NCBI RefSeq assembly: GCF_963921235.1
Contig: NC_086097.1
Coordinates: 4,030,001 to 4,094,000 of the forward strand
Source of the DNA: Mobula hypostoma
Lineage: Eukaryota
DNA: 64,000 nt
Direction: 5' to 3'
Below the pieces are notes generated by a model. That model saw only the letters and a list, made by a program, of their open reading frames with translations, ran no database searches and was not told the origin of the DNA. The translations under genes and the position numbers were made by a program. Each line of letters starts with the position of its first letter. The first letter of the stretch is position 1. This document shows positions 1,494-59,150 of the stretch, one piece after another.

Positions 1494-1576
1494 ACAGATG
1501 TAGTTACCACGGAGACTAAGGTCTCTGAGAGTTCCCATATCTTGCACAAAGAAAATACTACAACCTCTGGATTCAT

Positions 1577-1661
1577 GCAACACACATAAAAGTTGCTGGT
1601 GAACGCAGCAGGCCAGGCAGCATCTATTGGAGGAGGTACCGTCGACGTTTCGGGCCGAGAC
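1577..1661 (-). repeat. Penelope-like pseudo-LTR (pLTR) fragment with a truncated hammerhead
   Basis: Matches the terminal sequence of the Penelope copies at 19380-19465, 43590-43674 and 47804-47937 (gcaacacaca..aaagttgctggtgaacgcagcaggccaggcagcatct). Confidence 0.85.
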
Positions 1662-8200: not shown

Positions 8201-8889
8201 AAGCACATGGTGGACGGCAGCAGCACGCACCTGAGCCCCATCTTTGGTGATAGAACACCATTGTTCCGAACTTTCGTCTTTTTCCCCCGAGGATCTCGAT
8301 GGCTTCGGTTGCGGGACCTGGGGTTTGGGGCGCGCGATCGTGGCTAGGCCAATTGAGGCTGCTCCATGTTGTTTGCTCTGCCAAAGGACGTCTGCTTGAG
8401 CTGCGACCCTACGTGGGTCGCTGAAATCCTCACTTGCGGGGGGGGGGGGCGAATGTCCTCTGGCATTTGCTCAAGGAACATCTGTTCAAATAAAAGGCAT
8501 GGCTTATGGCCATCCATGAGCGCCAGCATATCATTCATGAGCTCGGATGGCGTGCGGTCGCCCAGGCCGTCCATGTGTAGGAGCTGCGCGGCCCGTTCAC
8601 GGCGGGAGAGTCCGAAGGTACGGATCAGGGGCACCTTAAGCTTTGTGTACCTGTCCTCCGTTGGTGGCTGGCGTAGGAAGTCGATGATCCGGCCTGCCGT
8701 CTCCTGGTCGAGCGTACTGACCACGTAGTAGTACCGCGTGGCGTCGGCTGTCTCTGATATTGAACTGGGCCTCAGCCTGCTCGAACCAAACGTGGGGCTG
8801 AGTGGCCCAGAAAGTTGGGAGCTTCAGAGAGACCGCGCTGTGCGAGTTGCTCGAACTCATGGCTGGTCGCTGAGTCGCCAACTCCAGAT

Positions 8890-8902
8890 GCCGGGGTCAC
8901 CA
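8890..8902 (-). promoter_or_regulatory. Primer-binding site, tRNA-Trp type
   Basis: The minus strand reads TGGTGACCCCGGC one base after the LTR. The tRNA-Trp PBS is TGGTGACCCCGAC. Confidence 0.85.
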
Positions 8903-8903
8903 A

Positions 8904-9154
8904 TGTAGTTGCACGCAAATGTGCTACTAAAGAAACACATGGAGGCAGAGACAGCTGAACTCAGAATGCCTTTACTGATTCAAAATCGCACGCTTAAATC
9001 TCCCCTCCCATGGGCTCCTGCGACCCGCGGGGCGGACATGATGTCAGACTGTCCCCGGAAGCTCCGCCCCGAGCAGGTAGTTCCAGACGCGCTACCGCGT
9101 GTCTGCCCGCGGCTCCTGATGGCAGTTCGAGTCCCGCGTGTGCGGGCTGCCACA
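8904..9154 (-). repeat. 5' LTR of the Gypsy element (251 bp)
   Basis: TGTAG...CCACA on the plus strand; direct repeat of 4512-4757; abuts the PBS. Confidence 0.95.
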
Positions 9155-9434
9155 ACGTCAAAATAATAGAGAAACGCAATCTGCCTAAGCTAATAACATG
9201 CAAACAATTGTACTACTTCTCGTTATTACTGAGTACACTTTTTAAACAATCACAGTCAAGCTTCAAAAAAAGTATGTGAACCTCTGGGGTAATGCCTTCT
9301 ACAAAATCTATTTGGAGTCACGTGTTCCAATCAATGAGATGAGATTGGAGATGTGGGTTGTAGAGGTGCCCTGCCCTATAAAAAAGACAAAATCAGAGCC
9401 TGTGCCTCTCAAGAAAGATCTCTTTATGAGCACC

Positions 9435-9992
9435 ATGCCTTGATCAACACAACTTTCAGAGGAACTTAGAAGAAAGGTTCTTGAGATGCATGAAGTTGGA
9501 AAAGACTACAAAAACATTTCTGTGAAGCTTGGTGGAAGGAGCATCATGGTTTGGGGCTGCTTTGCCTCCTCAGGGCCTGGACAGCTTGGAATTATTTTGA
9601 AAACAATAAATTCAAAATTGTGTCAAGACATTTTACAGAAGAATGTCAAGGTAGTGGTCCGTCAGCTCTAGCTTAATAGAAGTTGGTTGATGCAACAAAA
9701 CAATGATCCAAAACACAGCCGTAAATCAACCACAGAATGGTATAAAAAGAAGAAAATTTGTGTTTTGGAATAGCCAAATCGGAGTCCAGACCTTAACCCA
9801 ATTGAGATGCTGTGGCATGACCTGAAGAGGGCTGTTCATAAAAGGTGTCCCAGAAATATTGATGAACTAAAGCAGTTTTGTATGAAGGAATGGTCTAAAA
9901 TTCCTCAAAGCCAATGTGCAGGAGAGATCAACAGTTACTGGAAATGTTTGGTTGAAATTATTGCTATACAAGGAAGTCACAACAGTTACTAA
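9435..9992 (+). pseudogene. Tc1 DDE transposase remnant
   Basis: N-terminal ..LSEELRRKVLEMHEVGKDYKNIS is fused by deletion to VKLGGRSIMVWGCF, then QQNNDPKH and SPDLNPIEMLWHDLKRAV. Several stops are present. Confidence 0.85.
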
Positions 9993-10325
9993 AAGCAAAG
10001 TTTTGCATACTTATTCCAACAAATGTATGTAATATTGGATAATTTTTCTCAATAAATAAATGAATAATTTTTTTTGTGCTATTTATTCAATTGGGTTCTC
10101 TTTATCTAGTTTTAGAACTTAAATATGAAGATCATATTTAAGTCATATTTATGCAGAAACAGAGAAAATTCTGAAGGCTTCACAAACTTTCTAGCATCAT
10201 TTTAAAACAAAATATTGCCACAAATAAGTTAATAAAATAAGACCACCTATCCCAACTCTAACTGTTCCCACAACCAACAGACTCACTTTCAAGGACTCTT
10301 CATCTCATGTTTTCCATTTATTTCA

Positions 10326-11130
10326 ATAGGTTTCATTAGTTTTCAATAGATGCATTTAATGTCACAGAAATGTGTACAATATACATCCTGAAAAGCTTTT
10401 TCTTTGCAGACATCCATGAAAACAGAGGAGTGCCCCAAAGAATGAATGACAGTTACTACGTTAGAACCCCAAAGACCCCCAACTCCCCCCTCCCACACAC
10501 AAGCAGCAGCAAGGCAATGACCCCCCCACCCCAGCACAAAAGTATCAGCACCCTCCACCAAGCACTCATGCATGCAGCATTAAAGACACAGACTTGTAGT
10601 ACCCAAAAACTACATGTTCACCGCATAATTTGACATACCACAGGCTCTCTCTCTCCCTAATAAGGGAAAAAGAGGTGAGAGGGGAGACATAACAAAACAA
10701 CTCGTTGATTTACGATGTTAAAAGTTTGTTGCGTTGCTTTTTCGAAGCTCAGCACCAGGAAATTTGGCACCAATAAGGTGCAGCTGTCCGGGCACTCAAC
10801 CCACTACTCCCGATGTTCTGGGTTCTGCCGTGATGCTTCAGTTAGAGACCCTGGCGTAGAATCAGCACATCCCCAGAGCCATGAAATCCTGGAACCCTGA
10901 AAGTCTGCTCGTCTTCTTGGCTGTCTCCTTGGGATATCAAAAAGCGACTGGCCGTGAGGCCCTGAGAGTGGGTCCCATTCTCACAAAGGACCAAAGTCAG
11001 AGTGTAACACCAGGTCAGGGTCTTCAAAAGAACCCCTGACACACTGAAAAGGGAAGAAAGAGATTTCAAAGGCAGAAATAAAGTTGTTTTCGAAGATGCA
11101 AGCAAAGGAGTCACTGCTTAGTGCCATCTT
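10326..11130 (-). mobile_element. Non-autonomous LINE-derived/SINE-like element (family A)
   Basis: The minus strand starts AAGATGGC. Homologous to 17303-17995 and 30090-30372. No protein motif. It interrupts another LINE 3' UTR (10240-10320 and 11146-11346). Confidence 0.65.
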
Positions 11131-11664
11131 AATTTCGCGACACCTCCTTTATTATTATTATTTCTTTTTTTCTATTCTATTTGCGCAGTTTGTTGATTTT
11201 TGCACATCGGTTGACTGTCTGTCCTATTGGGGGCTGTTTTTCATTGACGCTATTATGTTTCTTTGAGTTTATTGTGAAAAGCAAATTTCAGGCTTGTATA
11301 TGGTGACATGTATGTACTTCAATAATTAATGACTTTAAACTTTGAATAGTTAATGGTATGTATAATTTCATCACAATTTACTTTGTATTGTTAGTTGTCT
11401 TGAATGTATGGTTGATACTCAGTTATCCAGCATAGTAGGGGGAGCACCTACTTCCCTCTGAATAATTGAAAAATATGGTGTAAAGCAAAATAATTTAAAG
11501 AGTGTTGCTCATTTTCAACATGAATGTTTATTAAAACAGCTGTGCTTGTTCAAGTTTATTGTGATATCATTACCTAGCTTCTCAAGCACTCCAAGTTTCT
11601 TTCCCGGGTATTTCTGTTTACTGGAATTTACAGATCCATTTACAACACAGTATGCCTCTGGAAT

Positions 11665-13410
11665 ATCAAAGTTCAAAGTAAATTTATTATCAACCTATGT
11701 ATCCTGTATACAACCTTCTTCCAGGCAGCTACAAAGCAAAGAAACAAAGAAACCCTCACAACAAAGACCAATAAGCTCCCAATGTATAAAAAAAGAACAA
11801 ATCATGCAGACAATAAAAAAGTAAACAAGTAACATATAGAGCATGAACTGCAGCATTCCCAAAGGTGAGTCCACAGCCTTGAGCCAATTCAGTGCTTAGG
11901 CAATTGTATTAAGTTCCTACATATATGTATTAGGAATATAAGTACTTTGCATATATCAAAGTACAGATATGTCACCATATACCACCCTAAGATTCATTTT
12001 CTAGTGGGCATTCATAGTAAATACAAAAAAAACCCAACAGAATCAATGAAAAATCTCACCCAATTAGACAGACAAGCGACCAAAGTGGAAAAGATAACAA
12101 ACTTTGCAAATACAAAACAAAAAAACAAGCATAATAATGACTTACTTTCAAGGCTCTTTGTCTCATGTTCAATATGTATTGCTTATTTATTTTTTATTAT
12201 TAAATCTAGTGGGGTATTGGAGTAAGTGAAGTTGAGTGAAATTAGCCTCTCTGGTTGAAGAGCTTGATGGTTGAGGGGAAATAACCTGGTGGTGTGAGTC
12301 CTGAGGCTCCTGTGTGGTGAGAAGAGAATATGTTCTGGGTGATGAGGATTCTTGATGATTGATGCTGCTTTCCTGAGACAGCATCCTTGTAGATGGGCTC
12401 AGTGACAGGGCAGGCTATACCCATGCATGAATGAATGGATGAATGAGTTGACTTTATTACTTACGTCCTTCGTATTCATGAAGAGTAAAAATCTTTATGT
12501 TATGTCTCTGTCTAAATGTGCAATGTGCAATTATAGTAATTTATAATAAATAGTGTGTACAACAGGACGGTCAATATAAAATAGAAATACAAGTGTATCA
12601 GTCTGATGGCCTGGTGGAAGAAGTTGTCCCAGAGCCTATTGGTCCTGGCTTTTGTGGTACCGTTTCCCAGATGGTAGCAGCTGGAACAGTTTGTGGTTGG
12701 GGTGACTCGGGTCCCCAAATATCCTTCAGGCCCATTTTACACACCTGTCTTTGTAAATGTCCTGAATAGTGGTAAGTTCACAGCTACAGATGCGCTGGGC
12801 TGTCTGCACCACTCCCTGCAGAGTCCTGCGATTGAGGGAGATACAGTTCCCATACCAGGCAATGATGCAGCCAGTCAGGATGCTCTCAATTGTGCCCCTG
12901 TAGAAAGCTCTTCATGATGGCCTGTGCTGTATCTACAACATTTTGTGGTCTTTTCTGTTCAAGGGAGTACCAGGCTGTGATACTACCAGTTAGCATACTC
13001 TCCAATGTGTTCTATAGGTTTGTCAAAACTTTAGATGATATGCCAAATCTTCGCAGCCTTCTGAGGAAGTAGAGGTGCTACTGTGCTTTCCTTCATAATG
13101 GCACTTCCGTGCTGGATCCAGGACAGATCTTCTGAAATGATAACACTGAGGAATTTAAAGTTGCTGACCCTGTCCAGCTCCGATCCCCCAGTGAGGACTG
13201 GCTCATAGACCTCTGCTTTCCTCCTCTAGAAGTCAGTAAGTCAACTCTTTGGTCTTGCTGACATTGTGTAAAAGATTGTTGTTGGGGCACCACTCAGCCA
13301 GATTTTCAATCTCCCTCCTATATTCTGATTCGTCACCACCTTTGATTTGGCCTACGACAGTGATGTTGTCAGAAAATTTAAATACGGGTTTGGAGCTGTG
13401 CTTAGCCTCA
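11665..13410 (-). mobile_element. Cluster of Rex1/L2-type 3' fragments
   Basis: Several stacked tails ((CTTTGAA)n and (ATTC)n on the minus strand). Coding remnants include KARTNRLWDNFFHQAIRL and the reverse complement of 'LSLNVSKTKE..VSNFKFLSVIISEDLSW'. Confidence 0.65.
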
Positions 13411-15844: not shown

Positions 15845-16095
15845 GGTTCCTTCTTCTCTAGTCCTTTACCTTTTACATTATCAGCTCCCCGTTTCTCACT
15901 TCATCCCTCCTCCCCCACCTACGTGGTTTCACCTATCACCTGCTAGCTTGTATCCTGTCCCCTCCCTGTACCTTCTTATTATACCGCCCCTTCCTTTCCA
16001 GTCCTGATGAAGGATCTCAGCCCAAACATTGACTGTTTTTTCAATAGATGCTCCCTGACCTGCTGAGTTCCTCCAGCATTTTGTATGTGTTACAT
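15845..16095 (+). repeat. Penelope-derived terminal repeat/SINE-like tail (second family) with a degenerate hammerhead
   Basis: cagtcCTGATGAaggatctcagccc-AAAcattgactg...gatgctccctgacctgctgagttcctccagcattttg. Homologous to 23465-23640 and 59068-59150. Confidence 0.7.
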
Positions 16096-18009: not shown

Positions 18010-18469
18010 AAGTACTTTAAAGGAGTAATTCCATTCTTCTGTTCTCTCCAGATATTCTTGAACTTTTTCTTGTTGTAAATTGTCCACAGTATGATAGTGA
18101 TTTTCAAATTCTCTTCAGTTGCTTTTCAAGAAAATTGTAGCAGCATTTGACTTATGATATTCATTTGGTTCATACCTTATTAATATTTTAATGCAATTGA
18201 TAATAAAATGCTGTGCAAATATAAGATGCAGATGGTATTTCTATATTGTTTAAAAGATGCTGCTGGAATGAGAGTGTGTCTTGTTTTTAAATTCTACCTG
18301 TGCTTTGTATTTCATTATTCTACCATTTTACTTCATCCAAAAGCTCTGAACTCTGATCTCTCCCAACATTTCCCCAATTTTATATTGTGCTCTTACCAAA
18401 TTCATCTTATCCAGGAGATGTATGTCCTGATTTCTTAAAACAATTTTTGGAACATAGATCTGGCCCTTT

Positions 18470-19465
18470 GGGATCCCGTTGGAGGTGGCGGAAGTTACGG
18501 AGAATAATATGTTGGACCCGGAGGCTGGTGGGGTGGTAGGTGATCCCACCACTAAGCACATCTTTCCCTCCCCCCTCCCCTGCTTTCCGCAGGGATTGCT
18601 CCCTACGTGACTCCCTTCTCCATTCGTCCCCCCCATCCCTCCCCACTGATCTCCCTCTTGGCACTTATCCTTGTAAGCAGAACAAGTGCTACGCATGCCC
18701 TTACACTTCCTCCCTTAACACCATTCAGGGCCCCAGACAGTCCTTCCAGGTGAGGCGACACTTCACCTGTGAGTCGACTGGGGTGATATACTGCGTCCGG
18801 TGCTCCTGATGTGGCCTTCTATATATTGGCAAGACCCGACGCAGACTGGGAGACCGCTTTGCTGAACACCTATGCTCTGTCCACCAGAGAAAGCAGGATC
18901 TCCCAGTGGCCACACATTTTAATTCCATATCCCGTTCCCATTCTGACATGTCTATCCACGGCCTCCTCTACAGTAAAGATGAAGCCACACTCAGGTTGAA
19001 GGAACAACACCTTATATTCCGTCTGGGTAGCCTCCAACCTGATGGCATGAACATCGACTTCTCTAACTTCCGCTAATGCCCCACCTCCCCCTCATACCCC
19101 ATCCGTTATTTATTTTTATACGCACATTCTTTCTGTCACTCTCCTTTTTCTCCCTCTGTCCCTCTGACTATACCCCTTGCCCATCCTCTGGGTTCCCCCC
19201 CGCCTTGTCTTTCTCCCCAGACCTCCTGTCCCATGATCCTCTCATATCCCTTTTGCCAATCACCTGTCCAGCTCTTGGCTCCATCCCTCCCCCTCCTGTC
19301 TTCTCCTATCATTTTGGATCTCCCCCTCCCCCTCCCACTTTCAAATCTCTTACTAACTCTTCCTTCAGTTAGGCCTGACGAAGGGTCTCGGCCTGAAACG
19401 TCGACTGTACCTCTTCCTAGAGATGCTGCCTGGCCTGCTGCGTTCACCAGCAACTTTGATGTGTG
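18470..19465 (+). mobile_element. Penelope-like element, 5'-truncated with a 5' inversion
   Basis: GIY-YIG motif (GVIYCVRCS*CGLLYIGKTRRRL..RFAEHL). 18470-18543 is the reverse complement of the segment expected upstream (compare 42681-42756). Terminal hammerhead motif at 19371-19406. Confidence 0.9.
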
Positions 19466-19750
19466 AAACTTTATTCCCTAGAGTATAGAAGAATATGGGG
19501 AGATTAGATAGATGTGTACAAAATTATGAGGGGATTGAGAGAGTAAATGCAAGCAAGCTTTTTCCACTAAGGATGGATGAGATTATAACTAGAAGTCATG
19601 GGTCGAGGGTGAAAGGTGAAATGTTTAAGGGGAGCATGAGGGGGAACTTCTTCACTCAGAGGGTGGTGAGAGTATGGAATGAGCTGCCAGTGGAAATGGT
19701 GGATGCGGGTTTGATTTCAACATTTAAGAGGATTTTGGATAGGAACATGA
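19466..19750 (+). mobile_element. CR1 3' fragment
   Basis: Encodes RVNASKLFPLR..GNFFTQRVVRVWNELP. Confidence 0.85.
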
Positions 19751-19759
19751 TAATAAGTA

Positions 19760-22700
19760 TATCATTTTGGATACTGTGGATGGAGACGACCTACCAGGGA
19801 CAAGTTGCAGTGGTTGTGTCTCTGGCACCGAGATGAGACCCTCAGCTCAGAAGGGAAGGAGGGAAAAGAGGAGAGCAGTAGTGATAGGGGATTCAGTAGT
19901 TAGGGGGAAAGATAAGAGGTACTGTGGAAGAGATCGAGAATCCTGCGTGGTCTGTTGCCTCCCTGGTACCAAGGTCCGCGATATCTCAGATCGAGTTCTC
20001 AGTATTCTCAAGAGGGAGGGTGAGCAGGGGGATGTCGTGGTCCATGCAGGGACCAATGACGTAGGTAGGAAGAGTGAAGAGGTCCTGAAAGGTGAGTCTA
20101 GGGAGTTAGGTGCCAAGTTAAAGGCCAGGACCTCCAGGATAGCAATCTCAGGAATGCTACCAGTGCCACGTGCAGAGGGGTTTAGAAATAGTAAAATAGC
20201 GTAGGTCAACACGTGGCTGAAGACATGGTGCAGGAGGGAGGGCTACAGATTTATAGATAACTGGGCAGTTTTCCAGGGAAGGTGGGACCTGTTCTGGCAG
20301 GACGGTTTACATCTGAACTGGAGGGGGACAAATATTCTTGCAGGTAGGTTTTCTAGAGAGGCTCCAGTGGATTTAAACTAGATACGGGGGGCGGGGGGGA
20401 ACCAGAGTGTAGGAACAGATGTGCGGGAGAAGGAAGAAAAAGAAAATGGTAAAGTTGTTTGCACCGTTAGTGATAAACAGAGAGTAAGAGGTGGAAAATT
20501 TCTTAAGTGCATTTATTTTAATGCTAGGAGCAATATAAGAAAGGTGGATGAGCTTAAAGCATGGATTGATACATGGATTGTCAGAGAAAATATTACAGCG
20601 GTGCTCTGGCAGGATAGATTAGAGGGCTCTTCTTGGGAGGCTATTTGGGTGGAATTGAGGAATAGGAAAAGTGTAGTAACACTTATAGGGGTGTATTATA
20701 GACCACCTAATGGGGACCGAGAACTGGAGGAGCAAATTTGTAAGGAGATAGCAGATATTTGTAGTATGCATAAGGTTGAGATTGTGGGAGGTTTAAATTT
20801 TCCACACATAGACTGGGAAGCCCATACTGTAAAAGGGCTGGATGGTTTGGAGTTTGTAAAATGTGTGCAGGATAGTTTTTTGCAGCAATACATCGAGGTA
20901 CCAACCAGAGAAGGGGCAGTGTTGGATCTCCTGTTAGGGAATGAGATAGGGCAGGTGATGGAGGTATGTGTTGGGGAGCACTTCGGGTCCAGTGATCACA
21001 ATGCCATTAGTTTCAATATAATTATGGAGAAGGATAAGTCTGGACCCAGGGTTGAGATTTTTAATTGGAGAAGGGATAACTTTGAGGAGATATAAAAGGA
21101 TCTAGAAGGAGTGGATTGGGACAATTTGTTTTATGGAAAGGATGTAATAGAGAAATGGAGGTCATTTAAAGGTGAAATTTTGAGAGTACAGAATCTTTAT
21201 GTTCCTGTTAGGTTGAAAGGAAAGGTTAAAAGTTTGGGAGAGCCATGGTTTTCAAGGGCTATTGGAAACTTGGTTCGGAAAAAGAGAGATATCTACAATA
21301 AATATAGGCAGCATGGAGTAAATGAGGTGCTTGAGGAATATAAAGAATGTAAAAAGAATCTTAAGAAAGAAATTAGAAAAGCTAAAAGAAGGTACGAGGT
21401 TGCTTTGGCAAGTAAGGTGAAAATAAATCCAAAGGGTTTCTACAGTTATATTAATAGAAAAAGGATAGTGAGGGATAAACTTGGTCCCTTAGAGAATCAG
21501 AGTGGACAGCTATGTGTGGAACCAAAAGGGATGGGGGAGATTTTGAACAATTTCTTTTCTTCGGTATTCACTAAGGAGAAGGATATTGATTTGTGTAAGG
21601 TAAGGAAGTTATGGAAACTATGATGATTAAAGAAGAGGAAGTACTGGCACTTTTAAGGAATATAAAAGTGGATAAGTCTCTGGGTCCTGATAGGATATTC
21701 CCTAGGACTTTGCAGGAAGTTAATGTAGAAATAGCACGGGCTCTGACTAAAAATATTTCAAATGTCATTAGAAACGGGGATGGTGCCAGAGGATTGGCGT
21801 ATGTCTCATGTTGTTCCATTGTTTAGAAAGGGTTATAAGAGTAAACCTAGCAATTATCGGCCTGCACGTTTGACATCAGCGGTGGATAAATTGATGGAAA
21901 GTATTCTTAGAGATGGTATATATAATTATCTGGATAGACAGGGTCTGATTAGGAACAGGCAACATGGATTTGTGCATGGAAGGTAATGTTTGACAAATCT
22001 TACTGAATTTTTTGATGAGGTTACTAGGAAAGTTGGTGAGGGTAAAGCAGTGGATGTTGTCTATATGGACTTCAGTAAGGCCTTTGACAAGGTTCCACAT
22101 GGAAGGTTAGTTAGGAAGGTTCAATCATTAGGTATTAATGAAGTAGTAAAATGGATTCAGCAGTGGCTGGATGGGAGACGCCAGAGAATAGTGGTGGATA
22201 ACTGTTTGTCAGATTGGAAGCTGGTGACTAGTGGTGTGCCTCAGAGATCTGTACTGGGTCCAATATTGTTTGTCATATACGTTAACGATCTGGATGATGG
22301 GGTGGTAAATTGGATTAGTAAGTATGCAGATGATACTAAGATAGGTGGCATTGTGGATAATGAAGTAGGTTTTCAAAGCTTGCAGAGCGCTTTAGGCCAA
22401 TTGGAAGAGTGGGCTGAAAGATGGCAGATGGAGTTTAATGCCTATAAATGTGAGGTGCTACATTTTGGTAGGACTAATCAAAATAGGAGATACATGGTAA
22501 ATAATAGGGCATTGAAGAATGCAGTAGAAGAGAGGGATCTAGGAATAATGGTGCATAGTTCCCTGAAGGTGGAATCTCATGTGGATAGGGTAGTGAAGAA
22601 AGCTTTTGGTATGCTGGCCTTTATAAGTCAGAGCATTGAGTATAGGAGTTAGGATGTAATGTTAAAATTATACAAGGCATTGGTAAGGCCAAATTTGGAG

Positions 22701-23250: not shown

Positions 23251-23464
23251 AATGGAAGGGCCATGGAGGGCTATCATCCAGGTGTAGGTCAATGGGATCA
23301 GGCAGATTAATAGTTCGGCATGCATTAGATGGGCTGAGATGTGCATGTCTGTGCTGTAGTATTCTATGATTCTAAGTCCCTCAAAAGGTCTCTGCTTCTT
23401 TCCTTCTTCCTCTGTTGCCTCCTCAACTAATCTATATCCTGTTATATACTTTGATAATCTTAAA

Positions 23465-23640
23465 CAACACACACAAAATGCTGGAGGAACGCATCAGGCC
23501 AGGCAGCCTCTATGGAGAAGAGTGAACAGTTGACATTTTTGGCCAAGACCCTTCATCAGCACTGGAAAAAAAGATGAGAAGTTAGAATACAAAGGTGGGG
23601 GAAGGGGAGAAAGAAGTAAGAGGTGGTAGGTAAGAGGTGC
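23465..23640 (-). repeat. Penelope-derived terminal repeat fragment (second family)
   Basis: acacacacaaaatgctggaggaac..caggccaggcagc with a decayed hammerhead (gacccttcatcag). Confidence 0.7.
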
Positions 23641-30783: not shown

Positions 30784-31384
30784 TTAAAAAAATTGTGTCA
30801 ATAAGTATGAAGTACAGATTAGCCAGAATCTAGTTTAGTGAGAGAACACTGTTGAAATACTAACTTACTATTGTGCACCTGCCTGTGCTGCTAATATCCT
30901 GTCCTTCAGTTCAAACTGCATTCATCCTTTACTTTGAATCTCCCTAGCCTGTGTTCTTTGGTGCCTTGACTTGATCAATGTATACTTTAAAATTTCTTCC
31001 TTAAAAGTCTTGAGAAGCTTTCTAAAGTTAAAAGCGCTATAATTGAAGTTTATTGTTAAATGATCAAATAGATAAGTATTTGTATACCTGCATTTCGAGA
31101 CTGTGAACATTAATCTGAAATTTACAGTAACTTTCTGATAGGCGATGTCATTGCTAGTTTCTCTTTGTGTCACATGAAATTGTTGGAAATTTGATGTTTG
31201 CTACAGTGTAATAAAATAATTACAAAATCATGAAACAATTGCATTGAATTCCAGTTAATTGGGCCATTGGTTAATCAGGGTAGCCGCTTATCTGGGACAA
31301 CTCTTAAAGAACAAAAACTAATCAAGAAAATTGTCCAGATTTCCTTCATTTATTTGAGACACTAAGCCACTTAATCGGACAGGA

Positions 31385-31545
31385 AACAACAGGAATTCTG
31401 CAGATGCTGGAAATTCAAGCAACACACATCAAAGTTGCTGGTGAACGCAGCAGGCCAGGCAGCATCTCTAGGAAGAGGTGCAGTCGACGTTTCAGGCCGA
31501 GACCCTTCATCAGGACTAACTGAAGGAAGAGTGAGTAAGAGATTT
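31385..31545 (-). repeat. Solo Penelope pLTR fragment
   Basis: Closely matches 47804-47965. Confidence 0.9.
31482..31517 (-). ncRNA. Minimal type I hammerhead ribozyme, intact core
   Basis: The minus strand reads AGUC-CUGAUGA-AGG(GUCUCGG)CCU-GAAA-CG-UC-GACU. Helix I (AGUC/GACU), both core boxes, helix II and the GUC cleavage triplet are all present. Confidence 0.8.
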
Positions 31546-31989
31546 TTGTAAGTGAGTAAGAGATAATTGGACAGGAGACTGTTGCTGAATAGATTCTAAC
31601 TAACTTCAGTGGTGTGTAGTTGTGTGGCTATTAGATACTACACCATGCTTCGAGTGAACAGTTTTAAAATAGCATCATTTGTGTTTTTGTTTTTAAAAAG
31701 CATTGATTTTTGTCATTGACAGTTGATGAGAAATAAATAGTAAGACAATTCTGAACCGTTTTGTTCACTGTGGTTTCAAACATTCAGGCTTGGAGTAGTC
31801 AGAAATGGCCTGGAGTGAAAATGAAAGCATTTCACTATTTCAATCAGTTAGGAACTATAAAGAATTTGAAGGTATCAACAATCATCTTGAATGTTACATG
31901 AAAATGAGCATTTCAAGAATGCAATCGTGAAGATTTGAAGGCAGTCCATTATCTGCACTAGGTTTCTGCTGATTTTGTTCATTGTGTGC

Positions 31990-36501: not shown

Positions 36502-39130
36502 ACATAGAACATAGAACATAGAATAGTACAGCACAGTACAGGCCTTTCGGCCCACAATGTTGTGCCGACCCTCAAACCCTGCCTCCCATATAAGCCCCCA
36601 CCTTAGATTCCTCCATATACCTGTCTAGTAATCACTTAAACTTCATTAGTGTATCTGCCTCCACCACTGACTCAGGCAGTGCATTCCATGCACCAACCAC
36701 TCTCTGAGTAAAAAAACCTTCCTCTAATATCCCCCTTGAACTTCCCACCCCTTACCTTAAAGCCATGTCCTCTTGTATTGAGCAGTGGTGCCCTGGGGAA
36801 GAGGTGCTGGCTATCCACTCTATCTATTCCTCTTATCATCTTGTACACCTCTATCATGTCTCCTCTCATCCTCCTTCTCTCCAAAGAGTAAAGCCCTAGC
36901 TCCCTTAATCTCTGATCATAATACATACTTTCTAAACCAGGCAGCATCCTGGTAAATCTCCTCTGTACCCTTTCCAATGCTTCCACATCCTTCCTATAGT
37001 GAGGTGACCAGAACTGGACACAGTACTCCAAGTGTGGCCTAACCAGAGTTTTATAGAGCTGCATCGTTACGTCGCAACTCTTAAACTCTATCCCTCGACT
37101 TATGAAAGCTAACACCCCATAAGCTTTCTTAACTACCCTATCCATCTGTGAGGCAACTTTCAGGGATCTGTGGACATGTACCCCGAGATCCCTCTGCTCC
37201 TCCACACTACCAAGTATCCTGCCACTTACTTTGTACTCTGCCTTGGAGTTTGTCCTTCCAAAGTGTAGCACCTCACACTTCTCCGGGTTGAACTCCATCT
37301 GCCACTTCTCAGCCCACTTCTGCATCCTATCAATGTCTCTCTGCAATCTTTGACAATCCTCTACACTATCTACAACACCACCAACCTTTGTGTCATCTGC
37401 AAACTTGCCAACCCACCCTTCTACCCCCATATCCAGGTCGTTAATAAAAATTACGAAAAGTAGAGGTCCCAGAACAGATCCTTGTGGGACACCACTAGTC
37501 ACAATCCTCCAATCTGAATGTACACCCTCCACCACCACCCTCTGCCTTCTGCAGGCAAGCCAATTCTGAATCCAGCTGTCCAAACTTCCCTGGATCCCAT
37601 GCCTTCTAACTTTCTGAATAAGCCTACCATGTGGAACCTTGTCAAATGCCTTACTAAAATCCATATAGATCACATCCACTGCACTACCCTCATCTATATG
37701 CCTGGTCACCTCCTCAAAGAACTCTATGAGGCTTGTTAGACACGATCTGCCCTTCACAAAGCCATGCTGACTGTCCCTGATCAGACCATGATTCTCTAAA
37801 TGCCTATACATCCTATATCTAAGAATCTTTTCCAACAGCTTTCCCACCACAGACGTAAGTCTCACTGGTCTATAATTACCCAGACTATCCCTACTACCTT
37901 TTTTGAACAAGGGAACAACATTCGCCTCCCTCCAATCTGCCGGTACCATTCCCGTGGACAACGAGGACATAAAGATCCTAGCCAGAGGATCAGCAATCTC
38001 TTCTCTCGCCTCGTGGAGCATCCTAGAGAATATTCTGTCAGGCCCCGGGGACTTATGTGTCCTAATGTATTTTAACAACTCCAACACCTCCTCTCCATTA
38101 ATATCAACATGCTCCAGAACATCAACCTCACTCATATTGTCCTCATCATCATCAAGTTCCCTCTCATTGGTGAATACTGAAGAGAAGTATTCATTGAGGA
38201 CCTCGTTCACTTCCACAGCCTCCAGGCACATCTTCCCACCTTTATCTCTAATCGGTCCTACCTTCACTCCTGTCATCCTTTTTTTCTTCACATAATTGAA
38301 GAATGCCTTGGGGTTTTCCTTTACCCTACTCACCAAAGCCTTCTCATGCCCTCTTCTTGCTCTTCTCAGCCCCTTCTTAAGCTCCTTTCTTGCTTCCCTA
38401 TATTCCTCAATAGACCCATCTGATCCTTGCTTCCTAAACCTCATGTATGCTGCCTTCTTCCACCTGACTAGATTTTCCACCTCACTTGTCACCCATGGTT
38501 CCTTCACCCTACCATTCTTTATCTTCCTCACCGGGACAAATTTATCCCTTACATCCCGCAAGAGATCTCTAAACATCGACCACATGTCCATAGTACATTT
38601 CCCTGCAAAAACATCATCCCAATTCACACCTACAAGTTCTAGCCTTAAATTTGCCTTTCCCCAATTAAAAATTTTCCTGTCCTCTTTGATTCTATCCTTT
38701 TCCATGATAATGCTAAAGGCCAGGGAGCGGTGGTCACTGTCCCCCAGATGCTCACCCACTGGGAGATCTGTGACCTGACCTGGTTCATTATCTAGTACTA
38801 GATCTAGTATGGCATTTCCCCTGGTCGGCCTGTCCACATACTGTGACAGGAATCTATCCTGGACACACTTAACAAATTCTGCCCCATCTAAAGCCTTGGA
38901 ACTAATCAGGTGCTAATCAATATTAGGGAAGTTAAAGTCACCCATGATAACAACCCTGTTATTTTTGCACCTTTCCAAAATCTGCCTCCCAATCTGCCCC
39001 TCTGTATCTCTGCTGCTATCAGGGGGCCTATAGAATACCCCCAGTAGAGTAACTGCTCCCTTCCTGTTCCTGACTTCCACCCATATTGACTCAAAAGAGG
39101 ATCCTGCTGCATTACCCACCCTTTCTGTAG
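36502..39130 (-). mobile_element. Relatively young CR1 LINE, 5'-truncated within the endonuclease
   Basis: 721-aa ORF 36672-38837 (GDSDHRSL, NYRPV.LTS, DFSKAFDKVPH, GVPQGSVLGP, KFADDTK) plus an EN piece at 38913-39119; (TTCTATG)n tail. Confidence 0.95.
36672..38837 (-). pseudogene. CR1 ORF2 (endonuclease C-terminus plus reverse transcriptase), longest open frame in the window
   Basis: RT motifs are intact, but it lacks the N-terminus and is frameshifted near 38906 and near 36710. Confidence 0.9.
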
Positions 39131-39779: not shown

Positions 39780-42595
39780 TTATTTTTTATTGAATTTCAT
39801 CATCAAACAAACATTTCCATAAGATGTATTTCAGATACTGTACATATATATCATATAATCATATTTGTCACAAATCTCCACATAATATTTATCTGAGGTA
39901 TACACTTATAGAAAGGAGAGGAAAGAAAGAACAGTCGAAAGAAGAAAACTATGTACAGAGTAGGGAGTGATTTTTTTTTACAACATATTCATTGACTTGT
40001 GAGAATAAAATCAGGCCTATGAGGTGTTATGTAGTTAAACCATTTTTCCCAGTATGAATCAAATTGTTCCAACTTATGATTAACAGATGCTGTTATCTTC
40101 TCCATTTTGTAAATGTCCATTATAATTTCCATCCATACATTTAAAGTTGGGCTCTCCGGAGAGAACCATTTTCTGGTAAGGGTCTTTTTTACCAGCCACC
40201 AGCTGGTAAATATTTCATTAAATATTTATCTCTTTTCAACCATTCTTGAAGTATATACCCAAAATATATGGTCTTACTCTCTAAGGATATTTCACATTTA
40301 AAGATGTCTTGTAGGGATTATGTACCCCACTCCAATAGTCTTTGATAATGGGGCATTCCCAGAAAATATGATAATAGTTTGCATTTTGATTTCCACAATT
40401 TCTCCAGCAAGCAGGGGGGTTACTATTATAATGGGATTTCTGAGAGAGTGTAATAAAATATCTTATCAAGTTTTTCCACCCGAACTCCCTCCATTTCTGT
40501 GAACTGGTACACTTCCATTGATACCTCCATATTATTGTCCAGTCTTCCTCAGATATTATTATCCCTCCCTCCTTCTCCCATTTTGTTTTAATGTATGAAG
40601 TCAAACGTGTTTTAAGATTTGACAAACCCTTATAAACGCTTGAAATTATTCTACTACCATCGTCTGAATTATATGCTTTTCTAAATAGCTCTATCAGACA
40701 TGTTGCCTTGGATACATTTTTAACCGTCCTGTTAACATACTGTCACATCTGTAAATACCAGTAAAAGTCTTGTTTTTCTAATAAGTGTTTCTCTTTGAGC
40801 ATTTCAAAACTGAACAGTGTTCCTTCTTTCATTATATTGCAAATAGCTGTTATTCCTTTAGCTGTCCAGTCCTTAAATGTAGCATCCAGTTTATTTGGCG
40901 TAAAATCCGAGTCATATGTACACCATTTAAGAATTGCAATGTCTCTCTCTAGTTTATATTCTTTTATAATAGTTTTCCATATTTTAAGAGTCCATTTCAC
41001 CCATGGGTTGTCAATATTATTTATGTAACTTTGTACGTTGTTATCAGCCAAAATTGCCTGTATGGGGATGGAAAGTATCCTCTCCTCAATGTTCTTCCAT
41101 TGAGTGCCATATGATGGGTTGCACCAGCATATCACAGCTCTCAACTGTGCTGCAAAATAGTAATCTCTAAGAGAAGGTAGGCCCCATCCCCCCACTTTTC
41201 CTTGGCTAATTGCAAAGTTTTGAGATGAACCCCAGGCCTTTTACCTTGCCATATATATCTTGATAGCATTTTGTTCCATTCATTGAATTGATTTTGGTTA
41301 ATCTCTATTGGTAGGGTCTGAAAGAGATATAGTAGTCTGGGCAGTATATTCATTTTAATAGATTCAATCCTTGAACTGAGACCAAGAAAAGGAATTAGGT
41401 TCCATCCTGTTAAATCTTCCTTAATTTTTTATATATAGGCTGATAATTGCATTCTGGTAATTTTGCCAAATCTTTTGGCATAATGATGCCCAAATATTTA
41501 CCGGACTCTGGTTTGCCATGCCCAAGAATACCTACTTTCAATTTCTCTTAGTAGGCTATAGCTATATGAAAGTAGTTGGATTTTATCTATGTTGATCTTG
41601 TATCCTGATAATTGGCCATATTGTTCAAAGGATTGCATCAATTTAGGTAAAGAGTATGTTGGTTGCCCTAGATAGATCAAAACGTCATCCGCGTAACAGG
41701 CCATTTTATGCTCTGTCCCTTTAATAGTAATTCCCCTGATATCTTCATTTTGTTTGATGTATTGAGCTGATGGTTTCAGCTATAATGCGAAGAGTAGCGG
41801 TGACCATGCACAACCCTGTCTCGTGCCCCTTTCTAGGGTAAAACTATTAGATAAATATCCATTGATTTTAATCCTAGCAGTAGGATTGTCATATAGTGCC
41901 TGTATAGTTTTAATAATTGTGTCATGTAGACCAAATCTATGTAAAACTCTGTAAAGAAAATTCCAAATAACTGAATCAAATGCCTTTTCAGCGTCCACGC
42001 TTATCACTACTGCTTCAATTTCATTTTTTTTAATATGATCCATAATGTGAAGTGTCCTTCGTATATTGTCTTGTGTTTCGCATTGTTGTATAAAACCTGT
42101 CTGATCATTATGTATCAGTGTGGATAGAAACTCTTCTAATCGTTTGGCCATGATGGAGGTAAATATTCTATAATCCACATTAAGAACAGATATTGGTCTA
42201 AATGACCCACAGTCCATTTTATCCTTGCCTTCGCTCGGTGTAGCTGAGATTATCGCCTCCTTCCAGCTGAGTGGCACTTGCACCTTTCTTAGGGTCCAGT
42301 TCAGTGTGGGGAGTAAATTAGGAATTAACTCACTTCTAAACTCTTTATACCACTTTGCCGTATATCCATCTGATCCTGGTGACTTGCTTAATTTAAGCCT
42401 ACTAATTGCAGTTTTTAGTTCAGCCTCAGTTATGTCAACAGTCATCGTTCTATTTTGTTCTTTGCTTAAAGTGGGTAACTCTAAAGAGTTCAGGAAGGTG
42501 TCAATTTGGGTTATGCTTCCCCCTGGAACTTTGGAATATAGGGTTTTGTTAAACATTTCAAAAGCTTCTTGAATTTCACTTAGCTTATTTTTTAT

Positions 42596-43674
42596 GTAAA
42601 ATGTGAAATGTACATTTCACGTACATCTGCTCTCACTCCATCCTCCCGCCACCCCACTAGGAATAGGGTTCCCCTGGTCCTCACCTACCACCCCACCAGC
42701 CTCCGGGTCCAACATATTATTCTCCGTAACTTCCGCCACCTCCATCACGATCCCACCACTAAGCACATCTTTCCCTCCCCGCCTCTCTCTGCATTCCGCA
42801 GGGATCGCTCCCTACACAATTCCCTTGTCCATTCATCCCCCCCATCCCTCCCCACTGATCTCCCTCCTGGCACTTATCCGTGTAAGCGGAACAAGTGCTA
42901 CACATGCCCTTACACTTCCTCCCTTACCACCATTCAGGGCCCCAAACAGTCCTTCCAGGTGAGGCAACACTTCGCCTGTGAGTCGACTGGGGTGATATAC
43001 TGCGTCCGGTGCTCCCAATGTGGCCTTTTATATATTGGTGAGACCTGACGCAGACTGGGAGACCGCTTTGCTGAACATCTACGCTCTGTCCGCTAGAGAA
43101 GGCAGGATCTCCCAGTGGCCACACATTTTAATTCCACATCCCATTCCCATTCTGGCATGTCTGTCCACGGCCTCCTCTGCTGTAGAGATGAAGCCACACT
43201 CAGGTTGGAGGAACAACACCTTATATTCCGTCTGGGTAGCCTCCAACCTGATGGCGTGAACATCGACTTCTCTAACTTCCGCTAATGCCCCACCTCCCCC
43301 TCGTACCCCATCTGTTACTCATTTTTATGCACACACTCTTTCTCTCACTCTCCTTTTTCTCCCTCTGTCCCTCTGAATATACCTCTTGCCCATCCTCTGG
43401 GTCCCCCCCCCCCCGTCTTTCTTCCCGGACCTCCTGTCCCATTATCCTCTCGTATCCCCTTTTGCCTATCACCTGTCCAGCTCTTGGCTCTATCCCTTCC
43501 CCTCCTGTCTTCTCCTATCATTTTGGATCTCCGCCTCCCCCTCCAACTTTCAAATCCCTTACTCACTCTTCCTTCAGTTAGTCCTGACGAAGGGTCTCGG
43601 CCTAAAACGTCGACTGTACCTCTTCCTACAGATGCTGCTTGGCCTGCTGCGTTCACCAGCAACTTTGATGTGTG
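42596..43674 (+). mobile_element. Penelope-like element nested in L1 ORF2
   Basis: Encodes RVPLVLTYHP..GVIYCVRCSQCGLLYIGET. 15-bp TSD TAGCTTATTTTTTAT (42581-42595 and 43675-43689). Hammerhead motif at 43580-43615 has GAAA mutated to AAAA. Confidence 0.95.
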
Positions 43675-44929
43675 TAGCTTATTTTTTATCACTTTTGTTC
43701 TTGGATCCCGTATTCTATGAATTGTATTTTCTGCTAGCATTTTTTTTTCAGTTTCCATGCCAGTATTTTCATTGATTTAGATCCACTTTCATAGTGTCTC
43801 TGTTTCAGAAACATTAAATTTTTTCTTATTTCTTCTGCAGCCATAACTAATCTTTAAAATTTCCTCTCGTGTATCCTGTGCCAAACTCAATTTCTGTTTT
43901 TTTTCTAGTTCCTTCAGCTTATTTTGTAATTCCTCTAATGTTCTATTCCTTATTTTTTTCTTATATGAAGATATCACTATAATTTTCCCTCTTAAGACAG
44001 CCTTCAGAGTATCCCATAGAATGGGAGGTGAAACCTCTCCATTATCATCGAATTCTAAGTAAAGACCAATTTCTTTTTTAATTTGTTCCTTAAAATAGGG
44101 ATCATTGAGTAGACTTGAATTTAGTTTCCAAATAGTATTCTTCGGTTGTAGGTCAAAATCAACAGATAAATATATAGGTGCATGGTCACTTACATCTATT
44201 GTCCCAATTCCACAGGTGATTATTTTGTCTCTCTCTTTTCCAAATGTTATGAAATAGTCTATTCTTGTATGGGGGGCAGAATAATGAGTGTAATCTCTTC
44301 TGTCAGGGAAAAGGTCCCTCCATATATCAATTAGACCAACATCTTCAAAAAGAGTGTTAACTGTCTTACGTAAGGACTTTCTTTCATAAGTTTTTCTATT
44401 GGAAGAGTCAAGAGTCAAATAAGAGCCAAGAAACACGAATAATGAAAAAAAGGTAATGAAGGTGTGATTCCAAGGCTGGGGTCTCTAGATGACCCGGGGT
44501 TGGGCTAGAAGAAAAGTCTAGCTGTGGGGGATAGCACCTCCTACCTGTGGGTTGAGGGCCCCCATTGCAGTACCTATAAAAGTAAGTAAAAAAAAACTAT
44601 GTCCATTACACAGAAATGTGTAATGTGTATTCCTCCCATGAATATATTCTCATTTAGGTGGGGAAAAAGGAATGAATTTTAAAAAATGGAGTAGTATAAA
44701 ATCCACATTATAACATGTATTTCTCGAGATAGGTATATCACCGTCTATTTTTGCTTCCGTTTAGTTTATCAGCACTTTTAGAGTTAGCCAAACCTTATGG
44801 CTCTTCGGAGGAGGTGAGGGCTGTCCTCGGAGAACTCACAGTCTCTTCCTAATATCCTTCTCTTGTCCTTCTCCCATCCCCTGCTTTCTAGGTTCTCTTA
44901 CTATTTCCCAAGCAGCTTGGGATAACTGC

Positions 44930-47803: not shown

Positions 47804-49147
47804 AAACACGAGGAATTCTGCAGATGCTGGAAATTCAAGCAACACACATCAAAGTTGCTGGGGAACGCAGCAGGCCAGGCAACATCTCTAGGAAGAAGTA
47901 CAGTTGACGTTTCGGGCTGAGTCCGTTCGTCAGGACTAACTGAAGGAAGAGCTAGTAAGAGATTTGAAAATGGGAAGGGGAGGGGGAGATCCAAAATGAT
48001 AGGAGAAGGCAGGAGGGGGAGGGATGGAGCCAAGAGCTGGACAGGTGATTGGCAAAAGGGATATGAGAGGGATCATGGGACAGGAGGCCCAGGGAGAAGG
48101 AAAAGTGGTGGAGGGGAACCCAGAGGATGGGCAAGGGGTATAGTCAGAGGGACAGAGGGAGAAAAAGGAGAGAGAGAGAGAAAGAATGCGTGCATATAAA
48201 TAAATAAATAAGGGATGGGGTACAAGGGAGAGGTGGGGCATTAGCAGAAGTTTGAGAAGTCAATGTTCATGCCATCAGGTTGGAGGCTACCCAGACGGAA
48301 TATAAGGTGTTGTTCCTCCAACTTGAGTGTGGCTTCATCTTTACAGTAGAGGAGGCCGTGGATAGGCATATCTGAATGAGAATGGGATGTGGAATTAAAA
48401 TGTGTGGCCACTGGGAGATCCTGCTTTCTCTGATGGACAGAGCATAGGTGTTCAGTGAACCAATATCCCAGTCTGCGTCGGGTCTCGCCAATATATAGAA
48501 GGCCACATCTGGAGCATCGGATGCAGTATATCACCCCAGCTGACTCATAGGTGAAGTGTCGCCTCACCTGGAAGGACTGTCTAGGGCCCTGAATGGTAGT
48601 GAGGGAGGAAGTGTAAGGGCATGTGTAGCACTTGTTCCGCTTACAAGGAAAAGTGCCAGGAGGGAGATGGGTGGGGAGGGATGGGGAGGAACGAATGGAC
48701 AAGGGGCTCGCGTAGGGAGCGATCCCTGCGGAAAGCGGTGGGGGGGGTGGAGGGAAAGATGTGCTTAGTGGTGGGATCCCATTGGAGGTGGCGGAAGTTA
48801 CGGAGAATTACATGTTGGACCTGGAGGCTGGTGGGGTGGTAGGTGAGGACAAGGGGAACCCTATTCCTCGTGGGATGGCGGTAGGATGGAGTGAGAGCAG
48901 ATTGTGAAATGGGAGAGATGCGTTTGAGAGCAGAGTTGATGGCAGAGGAAGGGAAGCCCCTTTCTTTAAAAAAGGAGGACATCTCCTTCATCCTGGAATG
49001 AAAAGCCTCATCCTGAGAGCATATGCGGCGGAGACGGAGGAATTGCGGGAAGGGAATGGCATTTTTGCAAGAGACAGGGTGAGAAGAGGAATAGTCCAGA
49101 CAGCTGTGAGAGTCAGTAGGCTTATAGTAGACATCAGTAGATAAACT
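47804..49147 (-). mobile_element. Penelope-like element (RT thumb, GIY-YIG, pLTR)
   Basis: Encodes DVYYKPTDSHSCLDYSSSHP, FFKERGFP and GVIYCIRCSRCGLLYIGETRRRL; hammerhead motif at 47902-47937. Confidence 0.95.
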
Positions 49148-50085: not shown

Positions 50086-50693
50086 GAAAACATATTGATT
50101 CCCTTTGAACACTATTTGTTTAATAAAGCAGGTTTTCAAAATGAACTTGTTCTGATGCTGTGAATAAAGACAAAATTGTAGTGTGTTCTTCACATAGCAA
50201 TAAAAATGATTTTTTATGGATGTTACAAATCTTTACAAATTTCTTCCCTTTCATAGTTTTCTCTTTATCAGATTGGCTTATCAATCTAGTAATATCTTTC
50301 AAAGATCACATTCAATTTGGGTCATGTTGCCTTGAGTTGAATTTGGTATGTAGTTTGGCTTCATCATTGCAGCGCATGGGCACATTTGCCAACAGATGTG
50401 TTCAGTATGAACATTTGTAATTAACAAAAGCTGAAACAACTTTTACAGCATTATTTATATATGAGTGTTGTACCTTTCCAGCTATTTACACATTCAGAGA
50501 ATTTTTGCTCTGTTGTACGGCTTAACTGTCGAGAAAATAACTAATGTAATATATGAGATCTTTATATCATAACTATTAAAATATAATTATTTCTAAAAAG
50601 TTTTAAACTATTCATTATGACTTTAGTTGTGGATAACTGGTGAAGATTAATTTGATGTGAAAGTCTAGGTCAGAGCATTCAACTAGATCTTAT

Positions 50694-50795
50694 CAAGCAA
50701 CACACATAAATGTTGCTGGTGAATGCAGCAGGCCAGGCAGCATCTCTAGGAAGAGGTACAATCGACGTTTCGGGCCGAGACCCTTCGTCAGGACC
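50694..50795 (-). ncRNA. Solo Penelope terminal fragment consisting largely of a minimal hammerhead (50760-50795)
   Basis: The minus strand reads GGUC-CUGACGA-AGGGUCUCGGCCC-GAAA-CG-UC-GAUU, and the fragment begins at helix I. Confidence 0.7.
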
Positions 50796-58425: not shown

Positions 58426-59067
58426 ACTTCTCAGGTTTTGTATTATTTATTGGCATTCTTGTGATAGTTGAAATTTGAAATGCAAGCATTCAACACAGAC
58501 TATATAACTTGAATATCTGTTAAGTATTTGCATCTTTTATTGCTAATGGCTGATCAATATAGAACACAATTTGTATTTTTTTCACTTGCAACTAGGATAT
58601 TTGAAATATTACTGTGATTAAAATCTTGCTACTATCAGCAAGATTCTAATATTAACCTTTATGTAATAAAAAATCAAATTATTATAAGTAGAAAGCAATC
58701 TTGTTTGGACTCAGTAATCCAGAGTTTTGCTTTATTTGGAGAGACTGATAGTGAGAAATTCTGTCTAAATACATGAATTAATTTTTGGTTACCTGTTATA
58801 CTCTTTCAATGTATTTGCCTCCTTTGAAAGCAGTGGAATTGATTATGTGGAAAGGAGCATGTAGAGATACTGTATTCAGCTGTGATTTTAGGGGAGGTGA
58901 CCAAAGGAAAATTTCACACTGTTGCCTCTCTTACAATATAGAACATCTGATTAAAAGGAAGCTTTCTAAATAGTGCAGAGTTTATGAGCTAGTAAGTTTA
59001 GTGATGAGTAACAATCACCATGGTGATTGAGAGTTGCACAATTAGAGTCCGATTAATTTACAAAGTA

Positions 59068-59150
59068 ACACATACAAAATGCTGGAGGAACTCAGCAGGT
59101 CAGGCAGCATCTATGGACTGGAATAAACAACTAGTGTTTCAGGCTGAGAC
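59068..59150 (-). repeat. Penelope-derived terminal repeat fragment (second family)
   Basis: acacatacaaaatgctggaggaactcagcaggtcaggcagcatctatgga. Confidence 0.7.

Follow-up and report, generated by a model that had tools for sequence, protein, structure and literature searches.

A probable minimal hammerhead motif in the 3′ ends of an abundant endonuclease-positive Penelope-like retrotransposon of a ray-type genome

A 36-nt motif on the minus strand of a 64,000-nt stretch of a ray-type genome (hereafter the window) raises the question of whether it is a hammerhead ribozyme, what carries it, and whether it acts where it lies. Read directly from 31517 to 31482, the motif is AGTC CTGATGA A GGGT CTCG GCCT GAAA CG TC GACT and is complete, as the sequence-only reading had claimed. 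The catalytic boxes CUGAUGA, GAAA and UC are all present. Helix I is AGUC/GACU (5 bp with the flanking U.G counted), while helix II is GGGU/GCCU with the loop CUCG and a G.U closing pair; in this register, an unpaired extra A directly follows CUGAUGA. Helix III is replaced by the palindrome ACGU (GAAACGUC in the direct read, positions 15.1-16.1), and the predicted cut falls after GUC, between 31486 and 31485. The feature at 31482..31517 (-), defined by direct read, pattern search and folding, is a minimal type I hammerhead motif. Both this class and the reduction of helix III to a palindromic A-CG-U had been proposed from the letters alone, and both agree with the traits of minimal hammerhead ribozymes (min-HHRs) in PMC4209133, which are matched here by the boxes, the open helix I of 4-5 bp, the short helix II and ACGU. 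The core pattern CTGANGA-N(4-30)-GAAACGTC has four matches in the window (19375-19402 +, 31486-31513 -, 47906-47933 - and 50764-50791 -) vs 0.02 expected from 100 dinucleotide-preserving shuffles of the window. The window copies are members of one repeat family and hence not independent events; because of this membership, copy number within the window is no independent evidence for the motif. Very probably, the motif is the min-HHR of a Penelope-like retrotransposon with an endonuclease, one present in extremely high numbers in this ray-type genome; this reading builds on direct observation of the motif and its family, of the anatomy of the element and of the copy numbers.

The focal motif resides in a 180-nt insertion (31384..31563, -) that is the 5′-truncated 3′ end of a Penelope-like element (PLE), spanning about positions 3344-3505 of the PLE unit and including a tail of ~32 nt. 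The part homologous to the unit extends from 31545 to 31384, tail included, while the 5′ end of the insertion holds about 18-21 extra bases that partly repeat the next 13 bases. A 12-nt target-site duplication, 11/12 identical, bounds the insertion, with the 5′ copy CCTGTCCAATTA at 31564..31575 and the 3′ copy CCTGTCCGATTA at 31372..31383 (minus strand, direct read). The insertion is devoid of an ORF, a pLTR (an abutting upstream partial unit) and an intact partner motif nearby on its own strand; the nearest same-strand copies, at 47902 (16.4 kb away) and 50760 (19.3 kb away), are both damaged. The focal copy is a solo, 5′-truncated, dead-on-arrival insertion from target-primed reverse transcription, and it most likely does nothing at its site.

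The carrier element is recognized from three window copies that, in a self-comparison of the window, reach about 0.9-1.3 kb upstream of the motif. Translated, these longer copies run through a C-x4-C-x2-C linker and a GIY...YIG core, and their stop codon precedes the motif by about 300 nt. One ORF remnant of 188 aa (48241-48807, -) matches Pfam GIY-YIG at E 0.004, below the curated cut-off. A search for longer proteins found 11 relatives, which their sources annotate as predicted proteins from two species of ray and one of salamander. The salamander relative carries RVT_1 and GIY-YIG, other homologues carry GIY-YIG, the homologue P0009 passes the Pfam GIY-YIG cut-off (26.0 bits), and for one ray protein the genome of the window has a locus with 100% identity over 422 aa. 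A protein search of this genome gave 288,506 first-look candidates, a figure that is not a copy number. Of six long genomic copies, the best is L022, with an open frame of 1,022 aa and a 10-nt target-site duplication. Its ORF matches RVT_1 at residues 515-677 (E 1e-4, 22.5 bits vs the Pfam cut-off of 29.6) and GIY-YIG at residues 925-1000 (E 5e-4, 20.8 bits vs the Pfam cut-off of 22.6), the arrangement of a single PLE ORF in which reverse transcriptase is followed by a C-terminal GIY-YIG endonuclease. The Penelope identity proposed earlier is thus borne out, by the CX4CxxC linker and GIY-YIG in three window copies and by RVT_1 and GIY-YIG in the 1,022-aa frame.

The translations of the window copies and of L022 also allow the element to be placed among PLEs. 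A CX2-5CxxC linker, read as CKRNKCYTC, and a C..C...H...H arrangement around the GIY-YIG core correspond to the Zn-finger-like motifs of PLEs, the linker and the endonuclease CCHH, as defined in the accessible text of PMC8557442. By the same text, the linker is absent from Penelope/Poseidon; since the family of the window has it, the sequence suggests a Neptune- or Nematis-like element. A search with the salamander PLE protein returned only the window's own family, at 33-34% identity, and no second PLE family. The repeating unit of the element is 3,505 nt, with the motif at unit positions 3372-3407 and the predicted cut after position 3403. Some 300 nt separate the ORF stop from the motif, which in turn is about 100-135 nt short of the 3′ end of the element; in the many full-length copies that are preceded by a pLTR, the motif also lies about 160 nt upstream of the start codon. 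Target-site duplications are found at two window copies and one full-length copy.

The other hammerhead copies of the window were sought with the 36-mer (up to 3 mismatches, then alignment) and by a looser BLAST with the 177-nt module. At three mismatches or fewer, the 36-mer finds the focal copy, 19371-19406 (+) and 43580-43615 (+), while pattern search and alignment confirm every paralogue of the sequence-only reading, each at its place and with its defect. The motif at 19371-19406 (+) has AGGC in place of AGTC, a helix I mismatch, and belongs to a 5′-truncated copy at 18469..19465 (+) that retains the GIY-YIG end of the ORF, the 3′ UTR, the hammerhead and a short 3′ end; the first 75 nt of this copy (18469-18543) are an inverted piece of the element. 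The motif at 43580-43615 (+) carries G12>A (GAAA>AAAA) and belongs to a 5′-truncated copy of 1,079 nt (42596..43674, +) with a short 3′ end, no tail and a 15-nt target-site duplication, TAGCTTATTTTTTAT, at 42581-42595 and 43675-43689. The copy at 47804..49144 (-), 5′-truncated at 1.34 kb and with a tail, includes the 188-aa remnant in which the GIY-YIG domain lies; its hammerhead at 47902-47937 (-) is changed at three positions of helix II and by GACT>AACT, such that helices II and I are disrupted. Two further copies are short 3′ pieces on the minus strand. One is a very short fragment (50693..50794, short 3′ end) whose hammerhead, placed at 50760-50795, starts at motif position 2 and has intact core boxes, an altered helix I and GACT>GATT. 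The other is a fragment at 1571..1661 whose motif part (1641-1661) begins inside helix II and has no CUGANGA box.

The looser BLAST adds three decayed copies of an older subfamily that were absent from the earlier list. These are located at 23462..23563 (-, about 80% identical), where the CpG sites of the motif are mutated and GAAACGTCG appears as AAAATGTCA; at 15989..16090 (+, about 75% identical); and at 59063..59150 (-, about 73% identical), where the 5′ half of the motif is absent. The copies of the window are dispersed over both strands at a spacing of 2.8-12 kb. At the 5′ junction of the copy at 42596..43674 (42596-42612), the span 42604-42621 consists of a 9-nt stretch with its own reverse complement directly behind it (GTGAAATGT/ACATTTCAC); the inverted pieces at 42596-42612 and 18469-18543 look like small versions of inverted 5′ PLE partners. 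A shared 5′ end at 42613 was considered and rejected, as the copy at 47804-49144 and the full-length units continue upstream of 42613.

Beyond the window, a 28-nt core pattern has 56,576 exact matches in the 3.48-Gb genome and the 35-nt motif has 45,173, with none for either reversed pattern. The sequence-only reading had stressed the intact core of the focal copy; the core is intact, but this does not make the copy special, as the motif is intact in 45,173 other genomic matches as well. At position 11.1, in the closing pair of helix II, the focal copy has U (a G.U wobble), as do 82 of the first 100 genomic copies listed; 16 of these 100 have C (a G-C pair), and so does the older subfamily. 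The C to U change at 11.1 falls in a CpG. In the young and most prolific subfamily, 11.1 is U and position 7 is C, whereas in the older subfamily they are C and U, respectively. With both sites in CpG, the master copies seem to have fixed deamination products in the motif without losing proliferation.

Terminal repeats had also been claimed for the motif, and here family and window part ways. When the first 355 nt of the unit were searched against the genomic DNA, 2,303 candidates came up at first look and 30 loci were obtained, and 25 of the 30 sampled 5′ ends have an abutting pLTR; in the window, all copies are solo 3′-end fragments. The pLTRs are from 45 to more than 1,500 nt long, finish with the last base of the unit and abut the first base of the next. 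Nineteen of the 25 hold the whole hammerhead motif, one starts inside it, and in five the start lies 4 to 57 nt past the predicted cut. Of the other five loci, one (L027) is the L022 copy itself, with just 17 nt of upstream tail, three have no upstream unit and one has a different internal junction.

The ends of the element were mapped in 66 young-family copies from 281,673 nt of genomic sequence. Counted from the motif start, the 3′ ends lie at +98 to +108 in 18 copies, at +115 to +125 in three and at +133/134 in 45, at least 25 of the last being pLTRs, for which that end point is given by construction. The two classes of 3′ end are about 32 nt apart, the length of the optional tail. None of the 66 copies and none of the 25 pLTRs begin at the predicted cleavage site, the nearest starting at +4 and +7. 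Among the first 100 genomic places listed, all eight pairs closer than 1 kb are oriented (-,+), 5′ end to 5′ end. An inverted, truncated 5′ partner is typical of PLE insertions. Certain head-to-head pairs have their junction within or beside the hammerhead (L001 1371-1611; G000:C1 2546808/2546844, 3655564/3655612 and 4659454/4659500), each giving a near-perfect palindrome (about 200-270 nt) which, as RNA or DNA, would fold back on itself. An optional PLE tail of 30-40 bp and, for a lizard PLE, two internal start sites of reverse transcription are described in the accessible portions of PMC11167929 and PMC8557442, and the ~32-nt difference between the 3′-end classes matches both.

Whether the core is held above its flanks, a check proposed with the original reading, has a divided answer: the motif stands above its flanks between lineages but shows no significant excess within the young family. 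The within-family set comprised 39 young-family copies picked by protein or 5′ region, with the motif ignored, and 165 nt of flank. Private non-CpG changes occupy 5 of 1,092 cells in the motif vs 63 of 6,341 in the flank (Fisher p = 0.12), and shared variants occur at 1 of 28 sites vs 10 of 163. Thus, no significant excess conservation of the motif over its flanks is detected among the 39 copies by a test of little power, a null that is to be expected, given the neutral decay of copies in a young family. At the extra base after A9, all 39 copies have A, and the majority sequence of the family retains every one of the 13 invariant core positions.

Between lineages, 13 older-subfamily copies were compared to the young family. 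Identity between the two subfamilies is 24% over the 20 nt upstream of the motif, 75% over the 36-nt motif (with most misses at CpG sites), 46% over the next 15 nt downstream and 86% over a 23-nt block farther downstream. Helix I is 5 bp in both, with a fifth pair that is U.G in the young and C-G in the older subfamily. A cross-organism comparison, in which contigs of uncertain type from four runs of four organisms were aligned to 42601-43690, has a similar outline. Depth falls to 7-13 (X9) and 0-113 (X13) in the UTR bins 43304-43451 and is back to about 590-690 (X9) and 8,800-12,000 (X13) in the motif bins. Many contigs lose homology exactly at 43580, with unlike sequence before it, and at 43617, with unlike sequence behind it. 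Among the variants listed, the sole one inside the motif is 43604 A>G, found in all four runs, which is the G12A defect of the window copy itself. By these alignments, the contigs of two other organisms appear to lose the 3′ UTR yet keep the motif, and the hammerhead behaves as a conserved island across the older subfamily and the contigs of other organisms, though not within the young family. Tandem or circular forms suggested by single-contig joints (e.g., 43679 back to 42701) were rejected, as the joints are too weak.

Searches with structural models and folding give a less favorable picture. Rfam 15 has no hammerhead model match at the gathering score, or at E up to 10, in the whole window or on an 81-nt stretch; the Rfam Hammerhead_1 scan suggested with the earlier proposal therefore did not recover the motif. 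Hammerhead_1 (RF00163) and related models share the catalytic boxes and the helix I/II arrangement with the motif, and the miss is presumably due to their expectation of a helix III, which the motif does not have. Matches to PrrB_RsmZ, a fly snoRNA and other Rfam models fall far below their own gathering scores and were set aside as chance. The minimum free energy of the monomer is -9.2 kcal/mol, with GAUG of the core paired with CGUC, vs -7.0 for the hammerhead-like fold. An imposed double hammerhead has -11.5 kcal/mol vs -26.7 for an extended duplex, the dimer optimum. Nearest-neighbor folding thus prefers inactive structures over the active fold, which agrees with reports that motifs of this sort have low activity in vitro. 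No run recorded as RNA was found to contain the sequence, a result that speaks neither for nor against cleavage.

How such a motif might work follows, by analogy, the published dimer model for PLE hammerheads (PMC4209133), which is also covered in the accessible text of a review (PMC6765202) that includes Lunse et al. on dimer cleavage; the dimer idea of the sequence-only reading is this model. A single motif could not form helix III. Two motifs, in a tandem transcript or in two transcripts, would instead pair via ACGU and swap helix I strands, and the resulting double hammerhead would cut after GUC in transcripts of tandem or pLTR-bearing elements. Cleavage would probably be slow and aided by the protein of the element.

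Min-HHRs are described in the pLTRs of metazoan PLEs by Cervera and de la Pena 2014 (PMC4209133), with an extra base after A9, a palindrome, a short helix I and no helix III. The motif of the window shares the type I topology without helix III, the palindromic ACGU, the unpaired base between A9 and 10.1, the short helix I and, at the level of the family, the location in a repeat flanking the PLE ORF; it also shares the occurrence of thousands of mostly solo truncated copies and some close inverted pairs. Compared to PMC4209133, three features differ: helix II is 4 bp with U.G (or 3 bp in another register) compared to 6-8 bp in flatworm and fly examples, the closing pair is G.U in most young-family copies rather than the usually conserved G10.1-C11.1, and 56,576 core matches compare to about 4,000 in coelacanth and 9,000 in Xenopus. 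A second relative is PAc, the Poseidon PLE of Anolis carolinensis (Frangieh et al. 2024, PMC11167929). As far as the accessible text of that paper describes it, PAc has the same pLTR-ORF-pLTR plan, a hammerhead upstream of the ORF and two 3′-end classes with a 30-40 bp tail; it differs in that its ORF starts inside the hammerhead, whereas the motif here is about 160 nt upstream of the start codon.

The alternative that survives best grants the anatomy of the element and questions the catalysis. The island may be kept as a protein-bound RNA structure near the starts of reverse transcription, or as part of the pLTR promoter, with the hammerhead resemblance real but catalysis dispensable; this is possible but unlikely. 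Among the points counted against a ribozyme reading are the Rfam nulls, the folding, the G.U closing pair, the within-family null, the lack of starts at the cut and the results from the lizard PLE. Regarding the last, the accessible text of PMC11167929 reports that catalytic mutants of the hammerhead insert normally in vitro, that cleavage needs protein and that no RNA-seq ends occur at the site; that of PMC8557442 reports that PLE clades without hammerheads proliferate well. The motif is also conserved together with the 23-nt downstream block (86% between subfamilies) and lies 65-100 nt from the two 3′-end classes, a position that would suit such a structure. The absence of insertions from the cleavage site, the 19 pLTRs that read through an uncut motif and the weaker G.U pair of the most prolific subfamily argue against a need for cleavage. 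A mere binding site, however, would not obviously require all 13 invariant core positions to be intact in the family majority, a homology island that stops exactly at the two helix I strands, or a helix I held at 5 bp in both subfamilies via a U.G to C-G change.

The short motif copies could, alternatively, constitute a separate non-autonomous family, retrozyme- or SINE-like, that is mobilized by the PLE. Such a family would account for the 22 of 66 sampled copies that start within 45 nt upstream of the motif or past its start, but it is very unlikely. The 5′ ends of the copies are scattered (-44, -43, -27, -18, -16, -11, -8, -3, -1, 1, 2, 5, 5, 12, 16, 37, etc.), the short copies match the 3′ end of the autonomous unit at 93-98% identity, and the window copies, 2.8-12 kb apart, form no tandem arrays. 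Non-LTR retrozymes, as presented in the accessible text of a 2026 preprint (bioRxiv 10.64898/2026.07.22.740005; see also PMC7229834), resemble the window copies in a type I hammerhead with minimal helix III and in a link to PLEs. They are, by contrast, short tandem arrays thought to give rise to circular RNAs, while the window copies are dispersed 5′-truncated PLE pieces and not short tandem units that each have a hammerhead. The preprint, in the same accessible text, sampled one cartilaginous fish for tandem retrozymes.

Two proposals extend the motif to host RNA. In the broader one, the hammerhead and the 23-nt block about 17 nt downstream would be a two-part 3′ module kept by active PLE lineages in rays and related fishes while the adjoining UTR turns over, and sense copies (at least 45,000 intact per genome) would trim host RNAs genome-wide at low level via trans pairing through ACGU, helped by the protein of the element where expressed; this is highly improbable. 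The narrower one, put forward in the sequence-only reading, holds that sense-strand copies could pair in trans and, if the window is intronic, cut host pre-mRNA. The 45,173 sequence-intact copies could make partner RNAs plentiful, and the ACGU palindrome permits trans pairing. Published min-HHRs, nonetheless, cut poorly in vitro even as dimers (PMC4209133), folding favors inactive conformers, and the nearest same-strand copies, 16.4 and 19.3 kb away, are damaged. The proposal is exceedingly unlikely, and the cutting of host pre-mRNA by window copies is pure speculation. Chance resemblance, in which a repeat merely contains CUGANGA and GAAA boxes, is consistent with the Rfam nulls and with the fact that copy number inside one repeat family proves nothing, but is scarcely credible given that helix I complementarity, the extra base after A9, ACGU and a location in the PLE 3′ module or pLTR coincide, none of them part of the search pattern, and that the island is conserved across lineages.

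The window also contains other elements. An uninterrupted 746-aa frame at 36672-38912 (-) matches RVT_1 (E 6e-34) and no other Pfam domain, and is probably of LINE type and unrelated to the PLE. A broken LINE with pieces of Exo_endo_phos_2 and RVT_1 (19743-22652, +) lies directly downstream of the PLE copy at 18469-19465, and more RVT_1 fragments are found at 41780-42616 (-), 56491-57207 (+) and 59840-61069 (+). Remnants of an LTR-type element at 5464-8823 (-) include RT-linked RNase H domains (5687-6706) and DUF7041 (8344-8823). Outside the window, three predicted ray proteins, named protein kinase domain protein (P0004), mucin-2 (P0005) and chitinase-domain protein (P0008), match the PLE endonuclease remnant at 67-76% identity; PLE fragments appear to have been taken into their gene models as exons.

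The min-HHR reading places the motif in a kind that is already known, from PMC4209133 and from the accessible text of the reviews PMC6155905 and PMC6765202, and nothing here changes what is known about that kind. A literature search, covering the main texts of openly accessible papers, found no ray- or shark-specific description. The original observation is correct and well made, and it is ordinary, as the arrangement is already published for PLEs. The family adds one unusually abundant vertebrate member to the PLEs with minimal hammerheads. The prevalent G.U pair and the absence of insertions that start from the cleavage site fit a growing view that cleavage is unneeded for insertion. A cleavage assay would have a ready negative control in the natural G12A allele at 43580, and the tens of thousands of intact motifs make this genome well suited to the search for cleavage-specific RNA ends.
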